Shown in pieces: positions 2,816 through 14,328 of a DNA stretch of 17,793 nucleotides. The number at the start of each line of letters is the position of its first letter. Position 1 is the stretch's first letter. Position numbers and translations under genes: made by a program. The notes beneath the pieces are model-generated. The model was not told where the DNA came from, ran no database searches, and saw nothing but the letters and a program-made list of their open reading frames with translations. Origin of the DNA: Candidatus Micrarchaeota archaeon (GTDB taxonomy: Archaea; Micrarchaeota; Micrarchaeia; Norongarragalinales; SBBD01); NCBI GenBank assembly GCA_038046605.1, contig JBBSVW010000053.1, positions 1-17,793 of the forward strand, written 5' to 3'.

Positions 2816-2932
2816 ATTCGCAGAGGTAAATAAGGGGGAGGCGGCGATGTTGGAATTGCCAAACAATTCCTACATGAGTAGACGCAAAGTCTACGTGACA
2901 CGTGGTGGGGGCTTAGCCCCCATGGGGTGTCA
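2816..2932 (+). repeat. Dispersed structured intergenic repeat, copy 1 (long form, three hairpins)
   Basis: ATTCGCAGAGGTAAATAAGGGGGAGGCGGCGA matches copy 2 at 26/32 ungapped, then a 51-nt insert, ending in TGACAC-GTG-GTGGGGGC-TTA-GCCCCCAT-GGG-GTGTCA. Confidence 0.85.
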
Positions 2933-3655
2933 GGCGTACGCGGGGTTCTCCCCCATCTCATTGTACTTCGCGTGCATGTCCTTGATCTTGTCCATGCTCG
3001 CCTTGATTTTCTCCTCAATGACGGCGCCCTCTGCAATCAGGGGCTTGACATCAACCGGGACCTTGATTATTTCGGAGAGCTTTGCAAGCAGTTTCGCGGA
3101 GCCTTTTGGCTCCATTGGCTGGGATGTCTGGATGAGGATGTTTGCAGCCGGGAACTTTTCAGCGGCGCACTCGGCAATCAATAGGCCCGAAACTCCCTGC
3201 GTTGCGCCCTCCTTGATTACCTCAATGCCCGCCTTCTTGAGCTTTTCAACCATTTCCTTGGTCGAGCCGATGCCGTAAATCTTATCCTGCGGGGTTTCCG
3301 AGGCGATGCCCGCAAGCGAGTAGATTTCCTTCACCCCTTTTTCCCTTGCGTATTTTAGGATTTTCTGGGAGAGTGCGAAGGCAACTTCTGAAGGTATCAC
3401 GAACTCGGAGAAAAGTATGATGAGGTTGTGTTTTTCAGACGCGTATATCCTTGCGGGCGAAAGCGGCACGTAATCATGGATTGGGGCAATGGGCGGGAAA
3501 TGCGAGCTTGATATGTAGCCAATTACCCGAAGGCCAAGCTTATCCGCCAGGTAGGATGCGGAAATTGTCCCAATCATCCCAATCCCGGGAAAGCCCTCGA
3601 TCATTATTGCATTTTTCAGCTTTACCTTTTCCACTTCGCGGATTTCAACTATCAT
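2930..3655 (-). CDS. PAC2 family proteasome assembly chaperone (PbaA/PbaB-like)
   Basis: IEGFPGIGMIGTISASYL, SSHFPP, PARIY, GVSGLLI and P.PKGSA motifs; C-terminal penultimate Tyr; SD AGGTGA upstream. Confidence 0.9.
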   Translation of the reverse strand: MIVEIREVEKVKLKNAIMIEGFPGIGMIGTISASYLADKLGLRVIGYISSSHFPPIAPIHDYVPLSPARIYASEKHNLIILFSEFVIPSEVAFALSQKILKYAREKGVKEIYSLAGIASETPQDKIYGIGSTKEMVEKLKKAGIEVIKEGATQGVSGLLIAECAAEKFPAANILIQTSQPMEPKGSAKLLAKLSEIIKVPVDVKPLIAEGAVIEEKIKASMDKIKDMHAKYNEMGENPAYA

Positions 3656-3669
3656 GGGCCTTCACCTGA

Positions 3670-4554
3670 TCAAAATATTGCCGCGCCCTTCAAAAGGTTG
3701 AATAGCAATATGCTTGATGGCGCCAGCATACAAAAATAAACGGGCGCCTTTTTAAGCTTCCCTTCCTGCATCGCAATGAAGGCGCTTGCTAAAATCGAGA
3801 GGAGGAATAGGTAGATTTGGATGGAAATTGCAATTGTGGGCAGCAAATAAGCGCTGCTTTGCGGCTTTCCAAAAATGCCAAAATCAAAATCAAGGTTCAT
3901 GCCGGCAATTGCGCCAAGCAAAAGGCCCAAAATTGCGGGCACCAGTATTCCTGCCGCTCCAAGGACGGTGTATTTTTGCAATGACAGCGCCGAGGCCAAT
4001 TCCCGTTGCAATGCGTGCATTTCGAGGATGTCACTGGCAATCCCCCCAAGTGGCTGCATCAACTCCTCGCCGGATTCATAGGCTTCAAGGAGCATGGAAA
4101 TTGCGCGTTTTAGCAGGGGCGAATTATTGTCATTTGAAATTTCCAAAAGCGCCTGGTCCGCACCATAGCCCGCGGAAATCATATTGTGCGCTTTTTTGAA
4201 TTCCCTTCCAAGCGGGGAATCCCTCCTTGCGGATTCCTCGATTATTTTTTCCATCGGGGTATTTTGTGGATAGGATGAGATTTGGAAAAGCGCCCCTGGA
4301 AGGTCGCTATCGATATCTTTTTGCTTTTTGTCCTTGAGGTAGCCGAGGAGCGAGTAGAGCAAGGATGGGGGGAGGATGAACACGGATATGGGGATTAGGA
4401 ATTCGAGCGGGAAGGGAAATGCTAGAAGGAAATGGATGGCAATTCCAATAGCCCCGGAAATGCCCCCTAAAAGTAAAATTAGCTCCTTGAAATCCTTCCT
4501 AATGCCAATGCTTTCCAGCTCCTCAAAAAACAGTTTTTCCCGCATAGCTTCCAA
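3670..4554 (-). CDS. Type II secretion system F family (TadC/FlaJ-like) membrane platform protein
   Basis: Two N-terminal TM segments, then DIDSDLPGALFQIS...LGREFKKA...G...AL...LLKRAISMLLEAYESG, then three C-terminal TM segments. Start is either TTG 4554 or ATG 4545. Confidence 0.82.
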   Translation of the reverse strand: MEAMREKLFFEELESIGIRKDFKELILLLGGISGAIGIAIHFLLAFPFPLEFLIPISVFILPPSLLYSLLGYLKDKKQKDIDSDLPGALFQISSYPQNTPMEKIIEESARRDSPLGREFKKAHNMISAGYGADQALLEISNDNNSPLLKRAISMLLEAYESGEELMQPLGGIASDILEMHALQRELASALSLQKYTVLGAAGILVPAILGLLLGAIAGMNLDFDFGIFGKPQSSAYLLPTIAISIQIYLFLLSILASAFIAMQEGKLKKAPVYFCMLAPSSILLFNLLKGAAIF

Positions 4555-4679
4555 CTATTGAAAGCCTCCGGAATGTTGCTGAATGGAAAAAAATATAATT
4601 GCGATGGTTTTGGGAAACTATTGGCGGGTAAATCAAGTGTAAAAATCGGGACAATACGTTGCCGTTCTAGGCATGATTC

Positions 4680-5981
4680 CTATGGGTGGGAGCGGTTCAT
4701 CACTCTTGGGAATGGGATTGCATCGCGGATATGCTCAAGCTTGCAAACCCACCTGACAAGGCGCTCCATTCCTAATCCGAAGCCGGAGTGCGGCACGCTT
4801 CCGTACCTTCGCAAATCGAGGTACCATTCGTAGGCGGAAACATCCGCGCCATCCTCCTTCAATCTGGCAATCAATTTATCCACATCCTCCTCGCGCTGGG
4901 AGCCGCCGATGATTTCCCCATAGCCTTCCGGAGCCAGGCAATCGTTGTTTTTCACAAGCTTTGGGTTGTCCGGATCTTCCTTCATGTAAAATGCCTTGAT
5001 GGCTTTTGGGTAATGGGTGATGAAAATTGGGACCGTCCTTTCGGCCGTCAGTACCCTTTCGTCCTCCGTCCCCAAATCATCCCCCCATTTGATTTCGCTT
5101 TTCTTTTTCTGGAGTATGCCGATTGCCTCATCGTATTTCAGGCGCTCGAAGGGCGGCACTATTTTTATCATTTCAGCAGGATCCCGCCCCAGGAATTTTA
5201 GCTCCTTTGCACGATCGGTTGCCGCCTTGTGGCATACGTGCGAAATCAGCCCCTCCTCGAGTGATAGCATATCGGCCAAATCCGCATGCGCAGCCTCCGC
5301 TTCCACATGCCAATATTCCGCCAAATGGCGAAGGGTCCGGCTTTTTTCGGCGCGGAATGAGGGCGTAATGGAGTAGACTTTTCCAAGGGAGAATATGAGC
5401 GCTTCCAAATAAAGCTGGGCCGATTGGGAAAGGAATGCCTTCTTGCCAAAATAGTTCATTTCAAAAAGCGTGCTTCCTCCTTCGACCGCGCCGCTCACAA
5501 TTATCGGGGGGGTTGTTTCGTAGTATCCCTCCTGCTTGAAATATTCGCGGACTCCTTCAAGCATTGTGCCCTTGATTTTCATTGTAGCCGTTATTTCCCT
5601 GCTTCGGACCCAAAGGTGGCGGATATCCAGGAGGAATTCGGGGGAGTTATCCTTTGCGATTGGGAACGCATGCGCGGAGTGCGTCACCTTGATTTCGGAT
5701 GCAACCATTTCGAAGCCATTAGGCGCCCTTGCATCCTTTTTTACCGTGCCCTTGATTTCAACGGCGCTTTCAATCAGCGCTTTTTCCGCCGCGGAAAAAT
5801 CACTTTCGGAAACCTTGTCCTTTTTCACGGCAACTTGCATTATGTCCGTTGAATCGCGGATCACCATGAAGCACATGCCTCCGGATGTGCGCTTGCGGTA
5901 CACCCATCCGCGGATATGCGCCTCCTTCCCTTCCATGGATTCCATTTGGAGTGATTCGATTGGTGCAAAGTGCTGTTTCAT
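4680..5981 (-). CDS. asnS: Asparagine--tRNA ligase, 433 aa
   Basis: N-terminal OB fold (IRGWVYRKR), SQSAQLYLE, FRAEKSRTLRHLAEYWHVEAE, GEIIGGSQRE, YEWYLDLRRYGSVPHSGFGLGMER. ATG 5981 preferred to TTG 6011. Confidence 0.95.
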   Translation of the reverse strand: MKQHFAPIESLQMESMEGKEAHIRGWVYRKRTSGGMCFMVIRDSTDIMQVAVKKDKVSESDFSAAEKALIESAVEIKGTVKKDARAPNGFEMVASEIKVTHSAHAFPIAKDNSPEFLLDIRHLWVRSREITATMKIKGTMLEGVREYFKQEGYYETTPPIIVSGAVEGGSTLFEMNYFGKKAFLSQSAQLYLEALIFSLGKVYSITPSFRAEKSRTLRHLAEYWHVEAEAAHADLADMLSLEEGLISHVCHKAATDRAKELKFLGRDPAEMIKIVPPFERLKYDEAIGILQKKKSEIKWGDDLGTEDERVLTAERTVPIFITHYPKAIKAFYMKEDPDNPKLVKNNDCLAPEGYGEIIGGSQREEDVDKLIARLKEDGADVSAYEWYLDLRRYGSVPHSGFGLGMERLVRWVCKLEHIRDAIPFPRVMNRSHP

Positions 5982-6029
5982 TGTCAATTCCTTAAAATTT
6001 TCAGAGCCCAAAATAGCCAGATTTATTTA

Positions 6030-6095
6030 ATTCGCAAAAGTAAATAAAGGGGTAGAGGCGACACGCGTAGGGGATTTAATCCCCTAGAGGTGTCA
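6030..6095 (+). repeat. Dispersed structured intergenic repeat, copy 2 (short form)
   Basis: ATTCGCAAAAGTAAATAAAGGGGTAGAGGC-GACAC-GCG-TAGGGGAT-TTA-ATCCCCTA-GAG-GTGTC-A. Confidence 0.85.
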
Positions 6096-6098
6096 GAA

Positions 6099-6106
6099 AT
6101 ATAAAC
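6099..6106 (+). promoter_or_regulatory. Putative TATA box, probably leaderless transcript for 6128..8245
   Basis: ATATAAAC ends 21 nt before ATG 6128; no SD motif. Confidence 0.45.
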
Positions 6107-6127
6107 TTCCTTCGTTTTGCTATTAGC

Positions 6128-8245
6128 ATGAGTCTGCTTTCATATATCTATTATGCCTTCTTCGTAGTCGGTTCAGTCACACTTGGCTATTTGCTCCTCC
6201 GGCTGGCATTCCCCGAAGTTCGCACCATGGATAAGAATGCAAAACTTGGCGCTGCAGGGATAAGCGGGGCGCTCCTTGCAGTTGCCGCATTTGCAATAGA
6301 TTATGCGTATGATGGCAGCCTTGAGGTGCTTTCCGGAAATGGCATTTATGCAATGATCCTATTCGTGCTCTTTTTGCTCTCGTTTGTTGCCCTCAAGCTC
6401 TATTTCATGTTCTCAAGGCCCGACTTCCTAACTGTTGGGGTACCTTCGGCGGCCCAGCCGGTCATCACCCTTAAAATCGAGCGCATCGAGCGGAAAATCG
6501 AGCCGGAGGTCAAGGAAACAATCATTCAAAAGCCCCAATCGGATATGCGCGAATCGGGCGGATCTGGCAACCTTGAAATCATGCAGATAATGGGCAAAGA
6601 TGAGCCGATTGTGGTTGCGCAGGAGCATGTGGAGCTTCATAGGAAGCAGGGCGTTTTTTCCAGCCTGCTTTCCATGTTTGGAGGCAAAAAGGATCCCTCA
6701 AAAGTTTTGCTTGATGAGAATTCGTTGGCAAGGATTGTCCCTATAGGGGCAAGCGCAGGAAGGGAAAATGAGCAAAAATCTGGCGGTAGCGGCAAAATCG
6801 CAGGGGGTTTGCCAACAAATTCCCAAACAATATCCGCCCCCCCCTATGTTGCGCGGGGGAATATGGCGGATTATGAGCAGCCCTCTAAGCCTAAAATAAT
6901 GGATAAGCAAGCCCAAATAGAATTGCCTCCTGGAATGGTTGAGGATAGGATAAAAGGAAAATCGGAAATTCAAGGAGCCGATCCATCTGCAAATGTGCCT
7001 CAAGGAGCCATAGAGCCAAAAAGTGATTCAAGTCCAAAAGATGTTTCGAAGGATCAGCAATTCATAGCATCCATCCCCGAATCGAGCTTTTCAAAAGAAC
7101 CAAGGAAGGGCTATATGTCGATGGTTTCGGATATTGTTGGCGATGAAGCAGGCAATGCCGAAAAGAGGAGGGGCGAAGGGGTTGAATTAGGCAAGCCTTC
7201 CGAAAAGCCGCCCCTGGAGGGCAAAAAGCCCCTTGATGCCTCCGGCCATGAGCGATTGTATGTTGCCGCAAAGGCCGGGCAGGATGAAAAAGCGGGCGCG
7301 CCATCTGGTTTTATCAAGGAAAAATTCCAAACGGATCCCAAACTAAAAAGCGAGCAGCTATTGAAGGCGCAGGACGCCCAGGCTGAGGCTGTGCTATCTG
7401 ATATTTTGCCAAGGGAGGTAATGGTGCAGGAGGTTTCCCAACCAATTGCAGAAGGGCGCAGGCGGCTATACGAGGTTGCGCGGTCGCAAAGCCAAAAGCA
7501 GATGGCTCGGGACATTTCAAGGCTGCCGCCAGGGGCGATGGTGCACCGAAGGTATATGATGAAGGGGGATGATTCGGCGCAGGGGGTAAGTGTTGTTGCA
7601 AACGCATCCGTAATGCAAAATGAGAATTTTGATGCCATGGTTGGGGATGTTTACTCCCAGCTGAAAAACACCAAAACAAATGGGATTGCCAAGGATTTGA
7701 AGGTTGCCCCCCCGAAAGGCAGCTCTTCCAAGGAAGCGCCAAAATTCGACCTCACTTTTGAGGATTTGATTGGTGAAAAACCAAAAGAAGGAGGAGGGGA
7801 ATTGGGCGGCCAATCCGATGCTTTAGGGGGCGGCTCATCCAGCATAATGAGCCAATTGGCGGGGCTAACTAGTCAATCAAGCTCAAAACCTGCTGATTTG
7901 GCTCAAACTGGCTCCAAACCAAATAACTTATTTTCAAAAGAAGATGTTAAATCGAAGTCCGCAGAGCCCCAATCAACTCCGACCCAAAAATCATCCATTG
8001 ATTTTGTCAAAATACAAGGAGAAAAAGGCATGGGCTGCCCCACCTGCCATTCCAAGAACACGAAAATCATCTTCTGCCCGTATTGCGGCTCAGGCATGTG
8101 CGCGAATTGCTCTCCTAGCATCAAAATCAAGGACGGCGGTTTCATTTACACATGCCCCAAGTGCAAGGAGGATGTGGATATTAGGAAGAAAACGCCGGAT
8201 GCGGCAGCCGGAAAGGGATTGATGGGGATGGGGAGTCCGAATTAA
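6128..8245 (+). CDS. Hypothetical membrane-anchored protein: 3 N-terminal TM helices, long low-complexity middle, C-terminal Cys8 zinc finger
   Basis: 705-aa ORF with hydrophobic segments in aa 1-95, a P/S/G/K/E-rich middle and four CxxC pairs near the C-terminus. Confidence 0.85.
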   Translation: MSLLSYIYYAFFVVGSVTLGYLLLRLAFPEVRTMDKNAKLGAAGISGALLAVAAFAIDYAYDGSLEVLSGNGIYAMILFVLFLLSFVALKLYFMFSRPDFLTVGVPSAAQPVITLKIERIERKIEPEVKETIIQKPQSDMRESGGSGNLEIMQIMGKDEPIVVAQEHVELHRKQGVFSSLLSMFGGKKDPSKVLLDENSLARIVPIGASAGRENEQKSGGSGKIAGGLPTNSQTISAPPYVARGNMADYEQPSKPKIMDKQAQIELPPGMVEDRIKGKSEIQGADPSANVPQGAIEPKSDSSPKDVSKDQQFIASIPESSFSKEPRKGYMSMVSDIVGDEAGNAEKRRGEGVELGKPSEKPPLEGKKPLDASGHERLYVAAKAGQDEKAGAPSGFIKEKFQTDPKLKSEQLLKAQDAQAEAVLSDILPREVMVQEVSQPIAEGRRRLYEVARSQSQKQMARDISRLPPGAMVHRRYMMKGDDSAQGVSVVANASVMQNENFDAMVGDVYSQLKNTKTNGIAKDLKVAPPKGSSSKEAPKFDLTFEDLIGEKPKEGGGELGGQSDALGGGSSSIMSQLAGLTSQSSSKPADLAQTGSKPNNLFSKEDVKSKSAEPQSTPTQKSSIDFVKIQGEKGMGCPTCHSKNTKIIFCPYCGSGMCANCSPSIKIKDGGFIYTCPKCKEDVDIRKKTPDAAAGKGLMGMGSPN

Positions 8246-8289
8246 GCCGACTTGTGTGATTCCGTTAAATTTGATTAAATTGGGATATT

Positions 8290-8772
8290 ATGGGAGTTCG
8301 CAGGAAAATCGCCCTTGGGATGGTTGCGGCGGCAATAGGCATATCCACAATCATTGTAATGAAGGCCCCATCAAAAATCTCCGAAACAGAATTCCAAGAA
8401 AGATTTGGCAAGGTGGCCGCCTCAGTTAGGGCAAAATGGCCGGATATTGAAGTTGAGGGCATGGTAAAGGGCGGCAAGGCACATTTCAACTATATGCTTC
8501 CAGATATCCGCGGCATAAAGCCTAATATTTCAATGCAAAGGTTGCGCCTTTTAGTTCCACAATTGAAAGCTGAAAATTCTCCTAAATTGGATAGCATCAA
8601 TGGAGAAATTGCTAGGGCAGCCGATCCCTGGCAGTTTGAAAAAGCCACAATGGGGATTTATGAGGTTGAAGGAGCAAACGGAGAGAAAGGGTTGGCTGCC
8701 GCATCTGAATTGGATTTCAAAGGCACGCCTCGTTTTAGGAAATTATGGGATAAGGTTAGGGGAAGAGATTGA
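8290..8772 (+). CDS. Hypothetical protein with N-terminal signal/TM anchor
   Basis: 160-aa ORF starting MGVRRK plus a hydrophobic stretch; co-oriented and fills the gap between neighbours. Confidence 0.65.
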   Translation: MGVRRKIALGMVAAAIGISTIIVMKAPSKISETEFQERFGKVAASVRAKWPDIEVEGMVKGGKAHFNYMLPDIRGIKPNISMQRLRLLVPQLKAENSPKLDSINGEIARAADPWQFEKATMGIYEVEGANGEKGLAAASELDFKGTPRFRKLWDKVRGRD

Positions 8773-8812
8773 GTACTACAATCGCCATATTCAAAATCCC
8801 TTAATTCTTCTC

Positions 8813-8860
8813 GTGCAAACATTTATAATAAGGTTTTACACATATATCCACTGGGTGAGG
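8813..8860 (+). promoter_or_regulatory. Promoter and SD of the antitoxin-toxin operon
   Basis: TTTATAAT at 8822-8829 inside an imperfect inverted repeat; GGTGAGG at 8854-8860 before ATG 8864. Confidence 0.6.
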
Positions 8861-8863
8861 CTT

Positions 8864-9091
8864 ATGACGAATGTGACTATTGCGGTTCCGAATGATTTGA
8901 AGAGCAGGCTGGATGGATATCCCGAAATTAACTGGTCGGAAGAGGCTAGGAAGGCTTGGAGGGAAAAGCTGCGGCTATTGGCGATCCTTGATTTACTCAC
9001 AGCCAAGAGCACTGCGACGGATAAGGATATTGAAGAGCTTTCCAAGAAAATCAAGAAGGGCATCGCTGATTCATATGAAAAAAAGGCGTAA
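8864..9091 (+). CDS. Ribbon-helix-helix (VapB-type) antitoxin, 75 aa
   Basis: MTNVTIAVPNDLKSRLDGYPEINWSEEARKAWREKL has an RHH pattern typical of archaeal antitoxins; strong SD; directly upstream of a PIN gene. Confidence 0.82.
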   Translation: MTNVTIAVPNDLKSRLDGYPEINWSEEARKAWREKLRLLAILDLLTAKSTATDKDIEELSKKIKKGIADSYEKKA

Positions 9092-9093
9092 GC

Positions 9094-9516
9094 ATGGAAT
9101 TGATTGTCGATGCGAACATAGTCGTAGCAGCCATTTTGAAGGATGGCCTTACGCGCAACTTGCTTTTCAATAGTAATTTGTATCTCTATGGCCCAGAAAA
9201 CCTATCTTTGGAAATAATGGAACATGAAACTGAATTCATAAGCAAATTGGGAGTCGGAAAGGCAGAGTTTGATAATCTCACTTCGGCGCTTTTGAATAAC
9301 CTGGAAATACTGCCACTTGCATATTTTGAAAAAAAGAAGAAAGAAGCACTGGAGTTTGTTCCCGATAGGAATGACTGGCCCTATTTTGCAGTTGCGCTGT
9401 TAAAAGGGTGCGCTGTTTGGAGCAACGATAAGCGGCTCAAGGAACAAAAGAAAATCAAGGTCATTTCTACCGAGGAGCTGTATAGTCAATTAAGCAAGAG
9501 GGAGTGGTTGCAATGA
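9094..9516 (+). CDS. PIN domain (VapC-type) ribonuclease toxin
   Basis: LIVDANIVVAA, conserved E, D.NDWPYFAVAL and VWSNDKRL acidic PIN motifs. Confidence 0.9.
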   Translation: MELIVDANIVVAAILKDGLTRNLLFNSNLYLYGPENLSLEIMEHETEFISKLGVGKAEFDNLTSALLNNLEILPLAYFEKKKKEALEFVPDRNDWPYFAVALLKGCAVWSNDKRLKEQKKIKVISTEELYSQLSKREWLQ

Positions 9517-9764
9517 GAGCAGTGTTCGATATTGAGTTCAAGGACCAAAAGGAAGCTGAAAATTCTCTTAGGATCATTTTGCCCCAAAAGTCCAAAAATG
9601 CAGTGCTTCACGTATTGCATAAGAAAGGTTCGTCAAACGTCCAATATATAATAGAGGCTCCCAGCTTTTCCCCCCTTCGGGCAAGGTCCACTTCCCTCCT
9701 TAGGGATATCAAGATTATGCTTACTGTATTTGAGAGAGCAAGATTTGGCAAACCAAAATCATAG
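9513..9764 (+). CDS. pcc1: KEOPS complex subunit Pcc1 (putative), 83 aa
   Basis: Size, N-terminal IEF.D.KEA, and C-terminal IEA....LRA..TSLLR.I pattern of the Pcc1 family; ATGA overlap with the PIN stop. Confidence 0.7.
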   Translation: MRAVFDIEFKDQKEAENSLRIILPQKSKNAVLHVLHKKGSSNVQYIIEAPSFSPLRARSTSLLRDIKIMLTVFERARFGKPKS

Positions 9765-10029
9765 ATTTCCGGTTATCCGACTTTATTTTGCATCACGTGT
9801 TGCACAAAGTTAAAATAAGCTCTAAAACCGCATCATTTTAAATTACGATCCCCTAACCAAACATGTGGTGTTTTTGGGCCTTCCCAACCACTAGATTCGT
9901 TACCTGTCTAAATTTGTGGCAAAAAGTGATTTTAGCTCGTAAAAACGCCTCAAAAAAAGACCAAAAAAGGGCTAAAATACGTCTTTTCGTAAAGGCGGCA
10001 TCGTCAAATGCCTTGCAAGGAATGATAGC

Positions 10030-10037
10030 TTTAAATA
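10030..10037 (+). promoter_or_regulatory. TATA box of the S-layer gene
   Basis: Consensus TTTAAATA; implies a TSS near 10060 if standard archaeal spacing holds. Confidence 0.65.
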
Positions 10038-10060
10038 CCCTCTAAAGATGAACAATAGGA

Positions 10061-10315
10061 GTTTAGCAGAATAGCATATTGCCACCTGCATCTTTCTTTT
10101 TTTAAAAGATGCAAATCCGGCTTGAGGGCCTTTGAGCGCGATTATTATTATCTTCGCGACATGGTCTTGATGCGTAAATGAGAAGGCAAGAAGCCCTATT
10201 GGGGGCATAGGTTTTCTGCTAACGGCGCGGCTGCTTCCTGCAGTTGCGTTAAATTCGGCAAGTTAGGAGGATGCGCTTGTTTTGTTAAAGCATCCGTAAA
10301 AAATAGGTGAAATAA
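10061..10315 (+). promoter_or_regulatory. Long structured 5' UTR of the S-layer mRNA (putative), with SD AGGTGA at 10305-10310
   Basis: Several nested and serial stems between the inferred TSS and ATG 10316. Confidence 0.6.
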
Positions 10316-12790
10316 ATGAAAAGTATGAATGTGAAGAGAATTGCGGCTATTGCAAGCGGAGCGGCCATGCTTGGCGCAGCGTTTGTGGGAGCGGCAGTAA
10401 ACGTCGACACTACCGGCGTCCAGTCTTTCCCGTTCTTTTCCGCTGGGGAACCGAACGTGAAGGTCGTAATTGGAAGCAGGGCGCAGCCTGTTGATGTCGT
10501 GGTTGGAGCAAATATCGCGGCAGTCCTAGGCAACCTTGCGTACAAGACAACGGCAGTTGAAGTATTGAACACCGACAAGCTCGGAACTTCCGCAACCGGA
10601 GGCGCTCTGGAAGATAAGGAAGTGGGCTTGACCATCACAACTCCCGGCGTAAACCCGGCATCCGCATACGAGATGAAGGCGTATGTTCAAGATGACTTGG
10701 ACTCTGGCTCTGAAATCGTAAGGTTCACCACATCCGGTTCAAGGTTCCCAGCAGGTGTTGCGAACTTCAGTGCGAACAGCGGCCCAAAGCAGATAACTAA
10801 GGACGTGACTTCCATTTTGGCTCCAGTAGCTGGAATGCCATCCGATGGAAAGATTACCTATCCAAAGGGCAGCACCAACACAAAAGAAGAGCAAAAGGTA
10901 TATGCATTCGCATTCGTAACTTATGATACGACTGCAAAGGCTGTACAGGCTCAGTACGTGAAGACCGGCTACGAAGTCGTTTTCACTGACCCAATCCCAA
11001 CCTGCTTGGATACATCCAAGAACTGGGGTAACTGCACAACCGACTCTGACAAGCTAAGCAAGGCAAACGTCGAGATTTCGTTCCTTGGAGACAAGTGGAC
11101 AATCTTTGACTATACGGTAGGCTCAAACCAGAATTCGCTTGCCTTGGGAGTAATCTCTTCCGTAACACTCGGAAAGCAGATTACCCGAAAGGAGTCTTTC
11201 AACATCGACGAACAGGTCACAACCCTGGATGGCTATACAATCACCCTGAAGGATTTGTCAGCATTCTCCCCACAAAGGGCGCAGCTTGACATCTCCGATA
11301 AGGATGGAAACCTCGTAAAGAGGCTCTATCTAGGTGAGGGAGACTCTTCAACTGTTACCGAAGCCAACAACATCGTTGTCAAGGTTAACAAGGTCTTCCC
11401 AGGCGCATTCGCAAAGCAAGGAATCGCAGACGTTTCGCTGTACTCCAGCCAACTTGTCCTGACCAATGCCGCAGAAATTACCGGCGGAGACTCGCACAAG
11501 AACTGGAAGGCACAGATTGTAAATGCAACTATCGGATCCAACGAAGGAATCTCGAAGCTGCAGCTCTACAACGACAATGACCAGACTTACAAAACACCGG
11601 TTTCTCAGACCTTGCTACCTGGAGAGTCCATCAACATAATTCGAGGAATGCCAGGCTACAAACTGAATTACCTTGGAGTTGAGGCTGTCGATCTTGACAC
11701 CTTGCAGTTCTCAATCCAAAAAACACAGACTTTCACCAACAGCTCGTCTGGAACTGTCTCAGGAAACTTCCTGTACATCCTCTCCGGCAAGAGCAATGCC
11801 TTCCAATACAATGGCAGGTCAGTTTCTGATGTCTATGTTGCATTGGAATCGATTCAGGCATGGAATGCAAACAACACAGTCTGGTACCTAGACAGCAATG
11901 GCTACATAACCAACACCGGCACAACTGCGGGGCAGGTCTTGTATAACTACAAGTCCGATGAGTCTGCGATAATTTTTGTGAACACATCGCAAAACATCAG
12001 CACCTCGTTCCCAGGATGGTCGAGCATCATTGCTATCCCCGAAATTACCGAGGAAAACAATGGCACCCAAGCAACCGTATCTCGCGACTACCACCTAAAC
12101 CTCATCTACGACTCTGCGCTTGACCAGTTCGTGAACTCGGCAGGTTCAACGACCGTAGACAAGATTGGCTATGGGATAGGCACATCGCTTTCAAGCGGCT
12201 TTATTGGCTGGAACGTTGCATCCCAAGAGAAAGGCTACACGACCTACAGAGGAAACGTCTTCAACAGCATTTCCTCAACGTCTGCAAGCATCTCTTATGC
12301 AACAAAGATCGCCAAGGCAAGATTTACCCTAACGGGCGGATCAGCCGGCAGTTCTGCAGGCAATGACGCAACAGTTACCTTGAAGGAAGGCGACCCCTAC
12401 ACAGTAGGAGGCGGCTACTCCCTTTTGGTTGACTCCATCACGGCATCGATATCAGGCGGAGATTCTGGTGACATCACCGGCATCGATCTGCTCGAGCCTT
12501 CCGTGAAGGATGCGGCAGTTGTCACAGCCCTCAACACCGACACGAACCCGCTTGTGGTATTGGACTCTGAAGCATCCGACACCGCAAACCTGGTCGTCAT
12601 TGGTGGCCAAATCGTTAACACCGTTGCGAAGGCAGCAGGAGTTGACCTCAAGAGCGGCGATCAGCCAATCGTACAGGTATTTGGCTCGACCAAATTGGTA
12701 GTTGCAGGATACTCTGCAGCCGACACCAAGGAGGCCGGGAATGCCTTGATTGGATGGCTAAACGACAACAGGGACAGCGTGAGGGGTTAA
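10316..12790 (+). CDS. S-layer protein (Methanococcales/Thermococcales-type S_layer_N and S_layer_C architecture)
   Basis: Signal peptide MKSMNVKRIAAIASGAAMLGAA; VVIGSRAQPVDVVVGANIA; C-terminal NLVVIGGQIVN and LVVAGYSAADT; T/S/N/G-rich with many N-x-S/T sequons; C-ending codon bias. Confidence 0.9.
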   Translation: MKSMNVKRIAAIASGAAMLGAAFVGAAVNVDTTGVQSFPFFSAGEPNVKVVIGSRAQPVDVVVGANIAAVLGNLAYKTTAVEVLNTDKLGTSATGGALEDKEVGLTITTPGVNPASAYEMKAYVQDDLDSGSEIVRFTTSGSRFPAGVANFSANSGPKQITKDVTSILAPVAGMPSDGKITYPKGSTNTKEEQKVYAFAFVTYDTTAKAVQAQYVKTGYEVVFTDPIPTCLDTSKNWGNCTTDSDKLSKANVEISFLGDKWTIFDYTVGSNQNSLALGVISSVTLGKQITRKESFNIDEQVTTLDGYTITLKDLSAFSPQRAQLDISDKDGNLVKRLYLGEGDSSTVTEANNIVVKVNKVFPGAFAKQGIADVSLYSSQLVLTNAAEITGGDSHKNWKAQIVNATIGSNEGISKLQLYNDNDQTYKTPVSQTLLPGESINIIRGMPGYKLNYLGVEAVDLDTLQFSIQKTQTFTNSSSGTVSGNFLYILSGKSNAFQYNGRSVSDVYVALESIQAWNANNTVWYLDSNGYITNTGTTAGQVLYNYKSDESAIIFVNTSQNISTSFPGWSSIIAIPEITEENNGTQATVSRDYHLNLIYDSALDQFVNSAGSTTVDKIGYGIGTSLSSGFIGWNVASQEKGYTTYRGNVFNSISSTSASISYATKIAKARFTLTGGSAGSSAGNDATVTLKEGDPYTVGGGYSLLVDSITASISGGDSGDITGIDLLEPSVKDAAVVTALNTDTNPLVVLDSEASDTANLVVIGGQIVNTVAKAAGVDLKSGDQPIVQVFGSTKLVVAGYSAADTKEAGNALIGWLNDNRDSVRG

Positions 12791-12850
12791 TCCCTCCCTT
12801 TTTTTCTTTTCTTTTTTATTTTTCTTTTTCGTTTTGATTTTACCTTTTCT
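12781..12850 (+). terminator. Terminator of the S-layer gene
   Basis: Small hairpin GAGGGG-TTAA-TCCCTC spanning the stop, followed by about 50 nt of T-rich sequence. Confidence 0.7.
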
Positions 12851-13016
12851 GATTCTATTGGTTTCATTCCCATATTTCCAATTCAATATGCCAATTCCCA
12901 ACCAAATGCAGGAAAACCAGATTTTGGATTTTACGGTATTGCGCCCAAAAAGCACCTTGCTACCCGGTTTCATTATAATTGCAAATTTTGCCTCCCCTAA
13001 CAAAAAATTCGTTACC

Positions 13017-13061
13017 TTTAAATTCACTACCGCCTAAGGTATTACATAACTATTTGGGGTG
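13017..13061 (+). promoter_or_regulatory. Putative TATA (TTTAAAT, 13017-13023) and SD (GGGGTG, 13056-13061) for the lipoprotein gene
   Basis: Motif sequence and spacing to ATG 13069. Confidence 0.45.
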
Positions 13062-13068
13062 CGTTTGA

Positions 13069-14118
13069 ATGAAACATGGCTTTATCCTATTTGGCTTATT
13101 CGCAGTTCTGCTGCTTTTTGGATGCACGCAGCCCGGGGGCCCAAGCGCATCGGTTCCAGCAGGGACGCCAACCCCTTCAACAGTTGTCCAAGCAACATCT
13201 ACGCCTACACCCGTGCCAACCCAAGGCGGGGAGTGCGTAAAGCCCGATCTGAAGTTTTCCGATGCGAAAGTGCCGGACATGATTATTTATGGCGCAAAAT
13301 ACGCTTTCGAGGCAAACCTTCTCTTCGACAAGGGTTCTTGCCAGGGCGCTCCCACTTCGGCAACTATTGGGCTATATGATGGCAAAAGGAAGCTTGCCGA
13401 AATGCAAGTTCCCGCTTTGCTTGCCTCAAACCCAATAAAACTCGATTATGCGCCGGCTGAAACGCGCGATTTCAACCTCAAATTCACCGTTTCAAGCTCA
13501 GCCGAAGAGGAGGCTGATATGGCAAATAATGAGTATCCGTTCACCATAACCGCCAAGCAATACGGCTACTATTCGGATGTTACCGGAACCGATTATTTCG
13601 AGGTAACATCCGGCGCCATCCGTGCGCAGGCATTCGAGATAACCGATCCGCTGCCGGTAAAGGCAATCGAACTCTACGTCAAGAAGCTCAATTCGGACTA
13701 TCAGAGCTTTGATGTGTATGTCGACATAAGGCCAGATGCGGTAGGCAAGCCATCCGGAGTAAACTCAATAACCCTTTCATCTGGATACTCCACCATGCCA
13801 AGGGAATTCGAATGGGTAAAATTCTCAACACCCCAGAAAACAACCATGGTTCCCGGCAAATACTGGCTGATTGTCAGGACCCTTAGCATGAATCCGCCCC
13901 TTGCTGTCCATATGATTAAAGGCGGTGTATTTGGAAAAGTCGAAAATTCCATGAAAAGCGATAACCTTGGCCCCTTCCAGGAAAATTGGGTAAAGCACAC
14001 GGAAGGCATCTTAAACTTCCGGCTCTCCAACGACGAGCCCGTGCCGCAGGCGGATTATTCGGATTCGTCCCCAAAACCAAAGCCCTCGACGGATTTCGAT
14101 CCCTATTCGGCTGTTTAG
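13069..14118 (+). CDS. Putative surface lipoprotein with P/T-rich linker and beta-rich (CARDB/Ig-like) domains
   Basis: Lipobox-like signal ...VLLLFGC, P/T-rich linker, EADMANN Ig-type ending, second beta-rich domain (AQAF...GKPSG...WVKF...GKYWLIV). Confidence 0.75.
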   Translation: MKHGFILFGLFAVLLLFGCTQPGGPSASVPAGTPTPSTVVQATSTPTPVPTQGGECVKPDLKFSDAKVPDMIIYGAKYAFEANLLFDKGSCQGAPTSATIGLYDGKRKLAEMQVPALLASNPIKLDYAPAETRDFNLKFTVSSSAEEEADMANNEYPFTITAKQYGYYSDVTGTDYFEVTSGAIRAQAFEITDPLPVKAIELYVKKLNSDYQSFDVYVDIRPDAVGKPSGVNSITLSSGYSTMPREFEWVKFSTPQKTTMVPGKYWLIVRTLSMNPPLAVHMIKGGVFGKVENSMKSDNLGPFQENWVKHTEGILNFRLSNDEPVPQADYSDSSPKPKPSTDFDPYSAV

Positions 14119-14120
14119 GG

Positions 14121-14142
14121 TTTTGCTTTTTTCTTATTTTTT
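14121..14142 (+). terminator. Oligo-T terminator after the lipoprotein gene
   Basis: TTTTGCTTTTTTCTTATTTTTT immediately after TAG-GG. Confidence 0.55.
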
Positions 14143-14263
14143 CTAGGCTAGTGCAAACTATGCGCATACCAAATGAGGATGGCAAATTTGCTTAATTAAA
14201 CAAATTGGCAGTTTATTTTAGAACTAGTTTATTTTACCGCTTTGAGGGTATTTAATGCATCCT

Positions 14264-14328
14264 TGACACCAAGGGAAACGTAGTTTCCCTACCGTGTCGC
14301 CCTACCCTTCCTATTTTGATTTGAGAAT
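14264..14328 (-). repeat. Dispersed structured intergenic repeat, copy 3 (inverted relative to copies 1 and 2)
   Basis: Minus strand reads ATTCTCAAATCAAAATAGGAAGGGTAGGGC-GACAC-GGT-AGGGAAAC-TAC-GTTTCCCT-TG-GTGTC-A, with the same motif spacing as copy 2. Confidence 0.82.

Follow-up and report, generated by a model that had tools for sequence, protein, structure and literature searches.

What kind of sequence recurs, with a preserved fold, beside unrelated genes? The question is raised by three intergenic loci in a contig of a Candidatus Micrarchaeota archaeon (JBBSVW010000053.1; the whole stretch of 17,793 nucleotides that was analysed is termed the window). The three copies are members of a small mobile DNA repeat of one Micrarchaeota family. 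Their parts are as follows.

2816..2931, + strand: copy 1, composite (head, lead, 51-nt insert, terminal hairpin), with its fixed end at 2931
2832..2843, + strand: purine lead of copy 1, the proposed third strand, mirroring 2902-2912
2846..2896, + strand: internal module of copy 1, two extra hairpins, also present in other composite copies
2897..2931, + strand: terminal hairpin of copy 1 (outer stem, 3x3 loop, 8-bp inner stem)
2930..2932, - strand: PAC2 stop codon TGA, overlapping the fixed end of copy 1
6030..6094, + strand: copy 2, simple form, between the divergent asnS and a hypothetical gene
6046..6057, + strand: purine lead of copy 2, mirroring 6065-6075
14265..14328, - strand: copy 3, simple form, with lead GGAAGGG as the mirror of arm GGGAA
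14336..14371, - strand: working galT end (KDALLTLKAVK-stop), adjoining the variable head of copy 3
14229..14264, - strand: stranded spare galT end (KDALNTLKAVK-stop), beginning exactly at the fixed end of copy 3

Extent and fold of the repeat family

The initial annotation placed the three loci, their parts and their neighbour genes correctly, the motif being recovered with the given spacing together with the internal loops (3x3, 3x3 and 3x2), the 8-bp inner stems and the 3-nt loops; we agree with it that a shared regulon is unlikely. The exact pattern ATTCnCA-N5-AAATA-N10-GGCGA has 7 matches in the 1.64-Mb genome, 3 of them within the window. A profile made from 28 copies detects 75 loci at E<0.01 in this genome and none at E<=2 in its reverse; the host genome holds about 75-85 G-rich copies, and the family is present in 11/11 genomes of the archaeal family, so that the further copies expected of a dispersed repeat exist here and in relatives. 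A metagenome scan returned 17 loci, 12 of them identical to the host genome. No Rfam covariance model matches the repeat (one chance match lies elsewhere in the window, E 0.22), in line with the initial annotation, which did not recognise it as a named family, and a search of the literature together with a word search of PMC12892359, with subscription papers and supplements outside its scope, found no description of it. Relaxed ARAGORN output was noise and was left out of the results. Four sequencing contig sets contain no joint that skips a window copy, a result uninformative on absence; contigs skipping the 51-nt module of copy 1, a two-hairpin insert that the initial annotation did not mention, do exist.

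The minimal unit of ~45 nt consists of a purine lead, a linker of ~12 nt that includes the outer stem, and a hairpin; the end at the hairpin foot is fixed and the head is variable. Composite copies are 43-61 nt longer, and a T-rich sister branch exists beside the G-rich branch. At least eight doublets were seen by eye; in head-to-head doublets the fixed ends point outward, and the three window copies are singlets. Across the family, two parts thought to be constant are not: the head ATTC..AAATA is often truncated, and the outer stem varies. Of 56 aligned copies, 44 have G-C as closing pair and 12 have A-U. The pairing of the inner stem is kept despite sequence change, as proposed, with 87 double changes in the 56 copies compared with 27 after shuffling; paired cells amount to 96.1% vs 85.8% shuffled, a percentage inflated by the collection of copies with hairpin-shaped patterns. 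The fold z-scores of copies 1, 2 and 3 are -4.5, -3.9 and -2.3 for the G-rich strand and -4.4, -3.8 and -3.4 for the other strand.

Proposed three-strand layout

The view that structure rather than sequence is selected was correct and incomplete, as the selected structure would comprise three strands. The G-rich lead, which the initial annotation had not remarked upon, is a mirror of the purine arm of the hairpin and covaries with it; a purine arm, a pyrimidine arm and a mirror third strand thus appear to lie on one strand, judging from the sequence. Among 104 simple copies, 901/1248 triads obey the triplex rule vs 743±9.7 in permutations, in one register only, and the mirror z is 10.5 vs at most 4.3 for a direct repeat, permutation z-scores being overstated because the copies are related by descent. 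Mutual information between lead and arm reaches 0.19 on the diagonal, compared with -0.02±0.06 elsewhere; at positions 9 and 10, the presence of A in the lead goes with that of A in the arm (p 9e-8 and 2e-8, 79 unique haplotypes). In a held-out test on 14 composite copies, including copy 1, 120/168 triads obey the rule (104.8±3.1 permuted), and in the T-rich branch the mirror beats the direct repeat in 26/36 cases and loses in 1. Two results are less favourable: the G tract is short (4-7 triads with an imperfect extension), which counts against a triplex, and in a crude genome-wide 6-mer count mirrors (97) are not above direct repeats (114). The lead was also considered as a promoter and rejected, since spacing and variation, as deduced from the copy consensus, do not match.

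Lead and hairpin together suggest the intrastrand-triplex layout of E. coli BoxC/PIT, which would point to single-stranded DNA. Like the BoxC/PIT/TM_ECO repeats of E. coli and other bacteria (Holder et al. 2015, PMC4666352), the Micrarchaeota repeat is intergenic and multi-copy, combines a hairpin with a mirror third strand in a G/C-rich purine motif, shows no strand bias, forms inverted pairs of two types and has variable flanks and no known enzyme. It differs from TM_ECO, as presented in the same paper, in its class I order on the G-rich strand (third strand 5' of the hairpin; TM_ECO is class II), in its consensus, and in a ~12-nt linker with an extra outer stem in place of the 1-6 nt loops of the ITxF search definition. 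Its sequence varies while the mirror rule holds, it has a T-rich sister branch, and it displays a fixed end with long duplications, leaves gene ends stranded and is associated with tRNA introns; PMC4666352 does not contain the word 'duplication'. In vivo footprinting of TM_ECO gave no sign of a stable triplex (PMC4666352), which counts against the proposed fold. Purine-motif (G-rich) triplexes are reported to be unable to form in RNA (PMC4666352); the proposal of a multi-copy small RNA is therefore less likely.

Insertion ends and stranded gene ends

Sites recur at gene ends and at tRNA T-loops, and orthologous sites without the element exist. In many cases a second copy of the 14-102 nt that adjoin the fixed end precedes the head. 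The duplication is clear in 27 and probable in 2 of 38 parsed loci of relatives; it occurs at 68/167 ends, vs 1.1% of random positions, and a purine directly follows the fixed end at 145/167. Twelve of 65 duplications are perfect, and the target starts with GA in 17/65. In the host genome alone, 19/76 ends have a duplication and most copies have none, which counts against the model proposed below; within the window, a flanking duplication was looked for at copies 1 and 2 and none was found. Copy 3 carries a 36-nt duplication of the galT end, overlooked initially, in which spare and working ends differ at 8 of 33 nt (5 silent differences and 3 in one codon).

Spare and working copies were compared as 37 coding pairs (472 codons). 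Most of their differences are silent (pN/pS 0.17), which disfavours a neutrally decaying spare (p about 1e-13) and suggests alleles imported from relatives. Transitions between the two copies are symmetric, and at one C-terminus five recoded copies are found with four elements between them. Each spare at the recurrent C-terminal and archease sites resembles its own species. Outgroups side about equally with the spare or the working copy (~44 to 46, a hand sum from which 4/17 rows, off-register or past the duplicate, were dropped; with them, 83.5 to 67.0), and the even split leaves the spare as a frozen older snapshot of the gene end unsupported. DprA, a marker of DNA uptake, is present in 1/11 genomes, which counts against import of donor DNA.

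The same positions are occupied repeatedly. An element lies at the PAC2 stop in 6/7 genomes of the genus, with at least four subtypes, and sites recur in 4/24 ortholog pairs at five C-termini and in 2/10 at the archease start. Among stranded gene ends, 27 are C-terminal sense and 6 N-terminal antisense; since both strands are used relative to genes, DNA fits better than a transcript. Strand runs along long contigs are lacking (same/different strand 4/8, 11/6 and 13/8), so that a lagging-strand route is unsupported. The ends of 15/76 copies lie within -1..+4 of a stop codon, where ~1 is expected, and copy 1 supplies the stop codon of PAC2.

The same element appears to form T-loop tRNA introns. 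For eleven G-branch ends the start coincides with a tRNA T-loop in the sense orientation (of 12 rows, one being protein-coding), 22/28 T-branch ends abut T-loop-like strings (7.9% at random), and doublets at tRNA 3' ends show a duplication of 23-27 nt that begins at the T-loop. A number of copies reside within tRNA genes, and both orientations to tRNAs are seen. By eye, the bulge-helix-bulge reads as strict in the copy at tRNA-Gly on C31 and as relaxed in other copies, the window copies not being concerned. The host genome encodes a two-domain EndA. Fujishima et al. 2010, as summarised in PMC4033280 and PMC3239211, described introns that resemble each other but occupy different tRNAs, with T-loop position 59/60 among the sites, and the present case appears to resemble these transposed archaeal introns in both respects; it differs in that the apparent intron body is also a repeat at protein-gene ends.

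Possible routes of movement

We lean slightly towards a non-autonomous mobile DNA element that works as one strand, with the lead preceding the hairpin; its triplex fold and joining route are deduced from the patterns above. The strand would fold into a hairpin clamped by the lead as third strand (a class I purine-motif triplex, class IV pyrimidine-motif in the T-rich branch), so protecting and presenting the 3' end, which would be joined precisely to a target break or flap, preferably before a purine. The other end might be settled by annealing in one of two ways. Pairing with a few matching bases would give a duplication that is perfect and variable in length; if the strand brings along a donor's flanking gene end, annealing to long homology would install the donor allele and leave the resident gene end stranded behind the inserted element. 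Arrays could arise through repetition of the process, which might also seed identical gene ends anew in different species, and an insertion may persist only if the gene is rescued by the duplication, by a supplied stop codon or by tRNA splicing. End-joining and annealing alone do not explain the exact stop-codon placement. The joining enzymes may be host repair and ligation enzymes, or a trans-acting nuclease outside the binned genome.

No cognate enzyme was found among those sought, which counts against this model. TnpB, RVT_1, a tyrosine integrase (PF00589) and Cas1 were not found in the 90.7%-complete host genome, and motif searches for RT and HUH returned only the known tnpA. DUF559 occurs in 8/11 genomes, with none in the host genome at the cut-off, and none of the nine DUF559 loci contains a G-branch copy (E<0.05). 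Five genes with copies on both sides proved ordinary or short. A search for an autonomous version revealed no long-range duplicate of G-end flanks and, for T-end flanks, none within 8 kb.

A fixed 3' end, a variable 5' end and a variable duplication are the signature of non-LTR elements, and the repeat has these non-LTR/SINE-like ends. A transcript or excised tRNA intron could thus have been inserted by target-primed reverse transcription, or by EndA/RtcB reverse splicing followed by DNA copying, a route also suggested by the sense T-loop ends and by EndA, as the related enzyme of ARMAN-2 cuts relaxed motifs (PMC3239211). We consider it improbable, as RVT_1 is found in 0/11 family genomes (68-97% complete), both orientations to genes and tRNAs occur, the purine-motif triplex is reported not to form in RNA, and RNA of the same cell could not supply a diverged allele.

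A host-kept terminator or RNA-end stabiliser, formed by the hairpin and pyrimidine tail of the other strand and spread passively via polymerase stalls, with repair making the duplications, is likewise rather unlikely. It would account for the ends at stop codons with a pyrimidine tail downstream and for the occupied PAC2 site, and PIT elements block DNA polymerase in vitro (PMC4666352); they have, however, no terminator activity in the same source. Furthermore, the commonest duplicated class is oppositely oriented (27/37), copies also lie in promoters and inside tRNAs, duplications start exactly at one end, and a C-rich third strand requires acid pH.

The initial reading of a REP-like or non-autonomous element processed as single-stranded DNA is supported by copy number, element-free orthologous sites, target duplications and a fold suited to DNA; the Y1/HUH partner suggested with it is not supported. 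Movement of a REP/REPIN-like or IS200/IS605-derived repeat by a Y1 (HUH) transposase is quite unlikely in our view, even though hairpins of a single strand are present, the other strand has a pyrimidine just ahead of the junction, the fixed ends of head-to-head doublets point outward, and two genomes have a Y1 gene at 1.2-1.3 kb from a copy. Y1_Tnp occurs in 5/11 family genomes at unrelated loci, and the three Y1_Tnp copies inspected with flanks have IS200-type end hairpins of their own; no cluster of the repeat adjoins a Y1/RAYT-like gene in the family genomes. IS200/IS605 elements are not known to make target duplications, long variable ones included, and use a fixed target of 4-5 bases, whereas here the duplications are long and only a GA/purine bias, with no four- or five-base target, is found. 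Classical MITEs have terminal inverted repeats and a duplication of fixed length; the singlets of the present family have one fixed end and variable lengths. With REP/REPIN and RAYT (Bertels and Rainey 2011, PMC3116915) the repeat shares short extragenic hairpins in subtypes, doublets, a non-autonomous nature and tandem clusters with repeated flanks, but it appears to occur mostly as singlets, with no RAYT-like gene at an adjoining cluster, and it has a third strand and long recoded duplications.

It is very improbable that the copies are leftover attachment sites from integrative elements (tyrosine recombinase, gene-end replacement): the tRNA 3'-end doublets resemble attL/attR pairs and T-branch ends favour T-loop-like strings, but no PF00589 integrase was found in the host genome, dozens of unrelated protein genes are targets, searches of viral contigs gave 0, 0, 1 and 3 matches, none with the lead of the element, and no long cargo was seen between duplicates.

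The proposed single-strand element recalls the sequential displacement of V. cholerae T6SS arrays and Rhs orphan ends by homology-facilitated illegitimate recombination, in which a homology-anchored allele strands the resident end downstream and arrays are built (PMC5361080). The Micrarchaeota family departs from this scheme in that a 45-nt element sets the position of the non-homologous junction, insertion affects tRNAs and the ends of housekeeping genes, and the displaced fragments span only 14-102 nt.

It is conceivable, though doubtful, that these repeats represent a new kind of mobile element with triplex-clamped single-strand ends and no need for an enzyme of its own, which homes to the same gene ends across lineages, swaps in foreign alleles of core genes and archives the old ends, with T-loop head-to-head doublets as the vehicle of tRNA intron gain and BoxC/PIT as ends of the same class. 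To our knowledge, BoxC/PIT-type triplex repeats have had no known role since the 1990s; here natural variation allows the triad code to be tested at each base, and links the fold with an insertion end that is precise. Stranded ends would document how alleles were replaced in core genes of uncultured archaea (rpoB, galT, archease, Hsp20 and an FKBP-type isomerase). The intron body shared with the repeat at protein-gene ends would offer a vehicle for intron gain, and make the spread of archaeal tRNA introns directly testable.

Copies of the repeat family and its extent

The three copies described in the initial annotation have both the positions and the parts reported there; in the terms used below, they comprise an ATTC..AAATA head, a purine-rich lead, a linker and a hairpin. 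Their flanking genes are as the annotation named them:
2816-2932, + strand: copy 1, composite form (extra hairpin module between lead and terminal hairpin), between fni and PAC2
6030-6095, + strand: copy 2, between asnS and a gene without Pfam match
14264-14328, - strand: copy 3, between a lipoprotein-like gene and galT

All six strands of these copies fold more stably than shuffles (z -2.3 to -4.5), and no Rfam family matches them, a check that the annotation had proposed together with a covariance-model scan. The scan revealed further copies in this genome and in relatives: a model of 56 copies, applied to no more than 150 candidates per genome, matched 85 times in this genome and 5-78 times in every one of the 10 remaining genomes of the family, while 12 of 134 genomes outside the family (from a sample of 141 of the class) had 1-8 weaker matches. 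A profile from 28 simple copies, which lack the extra module, found 75 loci in this genome at E<0.01 and 0 in its reverse. The exact pattern ATTCnCA-N5-AAATA-N10-GGCGA occurs 7 times in this genome, 3 of these in the window. Across 185,579 species genomes an exact pattern was present at 39 loci, 34 of them in records whose titles name Micrarchaeota or Norongarragalinales and 5 in one unclassified archaeon. The head is frequently shortened, and the minimal unit is ~45 nt (shortest insert 44). Literature searches of main texts yielded no description of the family, and the accessible portions of PMC12558985, PMC7002104 and PMC12892359 held nothing informative on it.

Other features of the window were noted. 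The fni protein ends in a low-complexity tail rich in cysteine and aspartate (2620-2767); relatives have comparable tails that differ in length. Concerning 2845-2897, another study's contig matches 2897-3392, preceded by 179 different letters; the head of copy 1 may be different in a related strain. An antitoxin-like small ORF and the PIN_2 gene after it (8913-9516) are likely a toxin-antitoxin pair, and a purine/pyrimidine-biased low-complexity tract 3' of the S-layer gene (12791-12847), conserved in relatives, is probably a terminator.

The purine lead as a putative third strand

The purine lead is a reverse-order repeat of the hairpin 5' arm. Of 104 simple copies chosen for their purine-rich lead and 6-bp stem, 33 come from this genome; in this set the triad rules of the purine motif are obeyed at 901 of 1248 positions versus 743±9.7 with leads and arms permuted. 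Other lead-arm registers reach z 5.6 at most; relatedness among copies inflates the z-scores given here and below. Among 79 unique haplotypes, the highest lead-arm mutual information falls on the diagonal for 9 of 11 rows, and at positions 9 and 10 an A in the lead goes with an A in the arm; the mirror z is 10.5 versus 4.3 for a direct repeat. A crude 6-mer mirror count did not discriminate. Fourteen held-out composite copies, copy 1 included, give 120/168 triads versus 104.8±3.1, with the register unchanged despite a 43-61 nt insert between lead and arm. The T-rich sister type (T branch) of the G-rich main type (G branch) has an upstream copy of the arm at 36 of 68 hairpins; here mirror beats direct repeat in 26, loses in 1 and ties in 9, and 13 of the 36 have a head-like motif. 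Copying errors yield direct and inverted repeats rather than mirrors, and for this reason we infer selection on a triplex, a fold that is rather probable.

By the classification of PMC4666352, as far as its available text goes, lead-first strands of the G branch belong to class I and those of the T branch to class IV. G-G-C and T-A-T triads drive these forms, and according to that paper RNA is unable to adopt purine-motif helices. The lead-first DNA strand would therefore be the sole molecule suiting both branches.

Fixed ends, stranded gene ends and recurrent sites

At the hairpin foot the element has a fixed end, and what follows this end frequently occurs again ahead of the head: of 38 parsed loci in relatives, 27 have a clear and 2 a probable duplication. 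Duplications accompany 19/76 ends in this genome and 49/91 in relatives versus 1.1% of random positions, in end lists that contain some false ends and omit some true ones, copy 3 among them. They span 14-102 nt, and 12 of 65 are perfect. A purine directly follows 145 of 167 fixed ends, GA starts 17/65 targets versus 8% background, and mismatches are most frequent within the first five bases, which hints at an error-prone junction. Fifteen of the 76 ends fall at a stop codon (-1..+4; ~1 expected). In the window, copy 1 provides the PAC2 stop codon, and copy 3 has left a 36-nt galT end stranded; this spare (the stranded duplicate beside the fixed end) has N at a variable residue, as does one working ortholog. 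None of the six orthologs listed carries an element at the galT end, and no duplicate was found beside copies 1 and 2.

The reading frame could be set in 37 of 68 duplications, the remaining 31 being RNA genes, non-coding or unassigned. Across 472 codons, working and spare copies differ by 110 silent and 80 replacing changes, a pN/pS of 0.17, where neutral decay of the spare from a perfect duplication predicts at least 0.5 (p about 1e-13, pairs not all independent); the spares are not decaying. Changes are symmetric and outgroups show no preference for the spare; the two copies therefore behave as alleles from two lineages. The working copy adjoins the head and the spare the fixed end in 33/37. 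In one gene the final 11-17 codons are present in five recoded versions, separated by four different elements.

The PAC2 stop is occupied in 6/7 genomes of the genus and 0/3 outside it, by at least four subtypes, one interrupted by a contig end. At five C-termini, picked because this genome has a duplication at each, 4 of 24 ortholog pairs show an own element and spare, with a different junction in three. The archease start is struck in 2/10 family genomes and one further organism; from the copy numbers we estimate that a given gene end has a background occupancy of a few per cent. Since each spare is closest to its own species, recurrent sites reflect repeated events or re-seeding rather than a single inherited insertion. 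The archease-start spares (L166, L194, L230) diverge from their working copies no more than 9 nt from the junction, in two cases by an identical Asp-to-Glu codon change. In this genome an element also adjoins the 3' end of the splicing endonuclease gene (L170, C20:292-1527), whose end is duplicated and recoded in a relative (L137, G002); with archease, whose start is a hot spot too, two RNA-splicing genes are thus targets.

Eleven G-branch ends start at tRNA T-loops. By a loose pattern, 22/28 T-branch ends adjoin a T-loop-like string, compared with 7.9% at random. Among T-loop introns and tRNA-end insertions, several consist of two elements head to head (130-190 nt) whose fixed ends both face outward; some of these doublets have a 23-27 nt duplication. 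This genome encodes a two-domain splicing endonuclease; according to PMC3239211 (in part), relaxed motifs at 59/60 are substrates of the ARMAN-2 enzyme, and the portion of PMC4033280 available describes transposition of introns among tRNAs without a vehicle. Stand-alone LAGLIDADG-like genes (L001:472-1305 and contigs C1, C13 and C43 of this genome; one Pfam-confirmed, three by motif) include two that adjoin tRNA genes; the tRNA-Ile next to the L001 gene has an abnormal-looking 5' end that overlaps the gene's stop. A different motif, 16 nt long (CACCCGAA-CCACCCC-like) and probably a regulator site, is present at 24 non-coding sites of this genome, spread over 20 contigs (e.g. C9:24163, C13:17964, C43:989). 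It lies ~10 nt upstream of a TATA-like box and ~40 nt ahead of the point where LAGLIDADG, antitoxin-like or repair genes start; in relatives it also precedes DUF559 genes.

Probable mobility of the family and competing explanations

We propose, on balance, a single-strand DNA element: a triplex would protect its 3' end, which would be joined precisely to the target, while the other end would anneal through short or long homology. This scheme alone does not account for the exact placement at stop codons. The family is alike in fold to BoxC/PIT and in outcome to homology-facilitated sequential displacement, as described in the available part of PMC5361080. It departs from TM_ECO and REP/RAYT (PMC3116915, in part) in at least one tested membership feature each, and from IS200/IS605 derivatives, MITEs and retroelements in at least one tested feature.

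Passage through an RNA intermediate, a molecule in which the purine-motif helix would not form, is unlikely. A host-kept terminator is equally unlikely. Movement of a REP-like element by Y1 seems more doubtful still; an IS200-type tnpA (L001:1420-2090), GC-rich in its coding region and bounded by end hairpins of its own, is apparently a recent arrival without relation to the repeat. That the copies are attachment-site remnants is very improbable.

A joining enzyme and a DNA uptake route were sought in this and the other family genomes, and none was found. DUF559 nuclease failed as a partner here. Five family genomes (L210-L213, L217) have a conserved HTH and DUF559/Vsr-like nuclease gene, flanked by an ahcY-like gene and a small basic ORF; this genome lacks DUF559 at the cut-off. 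The family is very probably mobile in nature, and its mobility and the triplex are firmer than the joining step. The single-strand scheme would account for the perfect duplications, the recoded spares, the arrays, the hot spots and the occurrence in both orientations.
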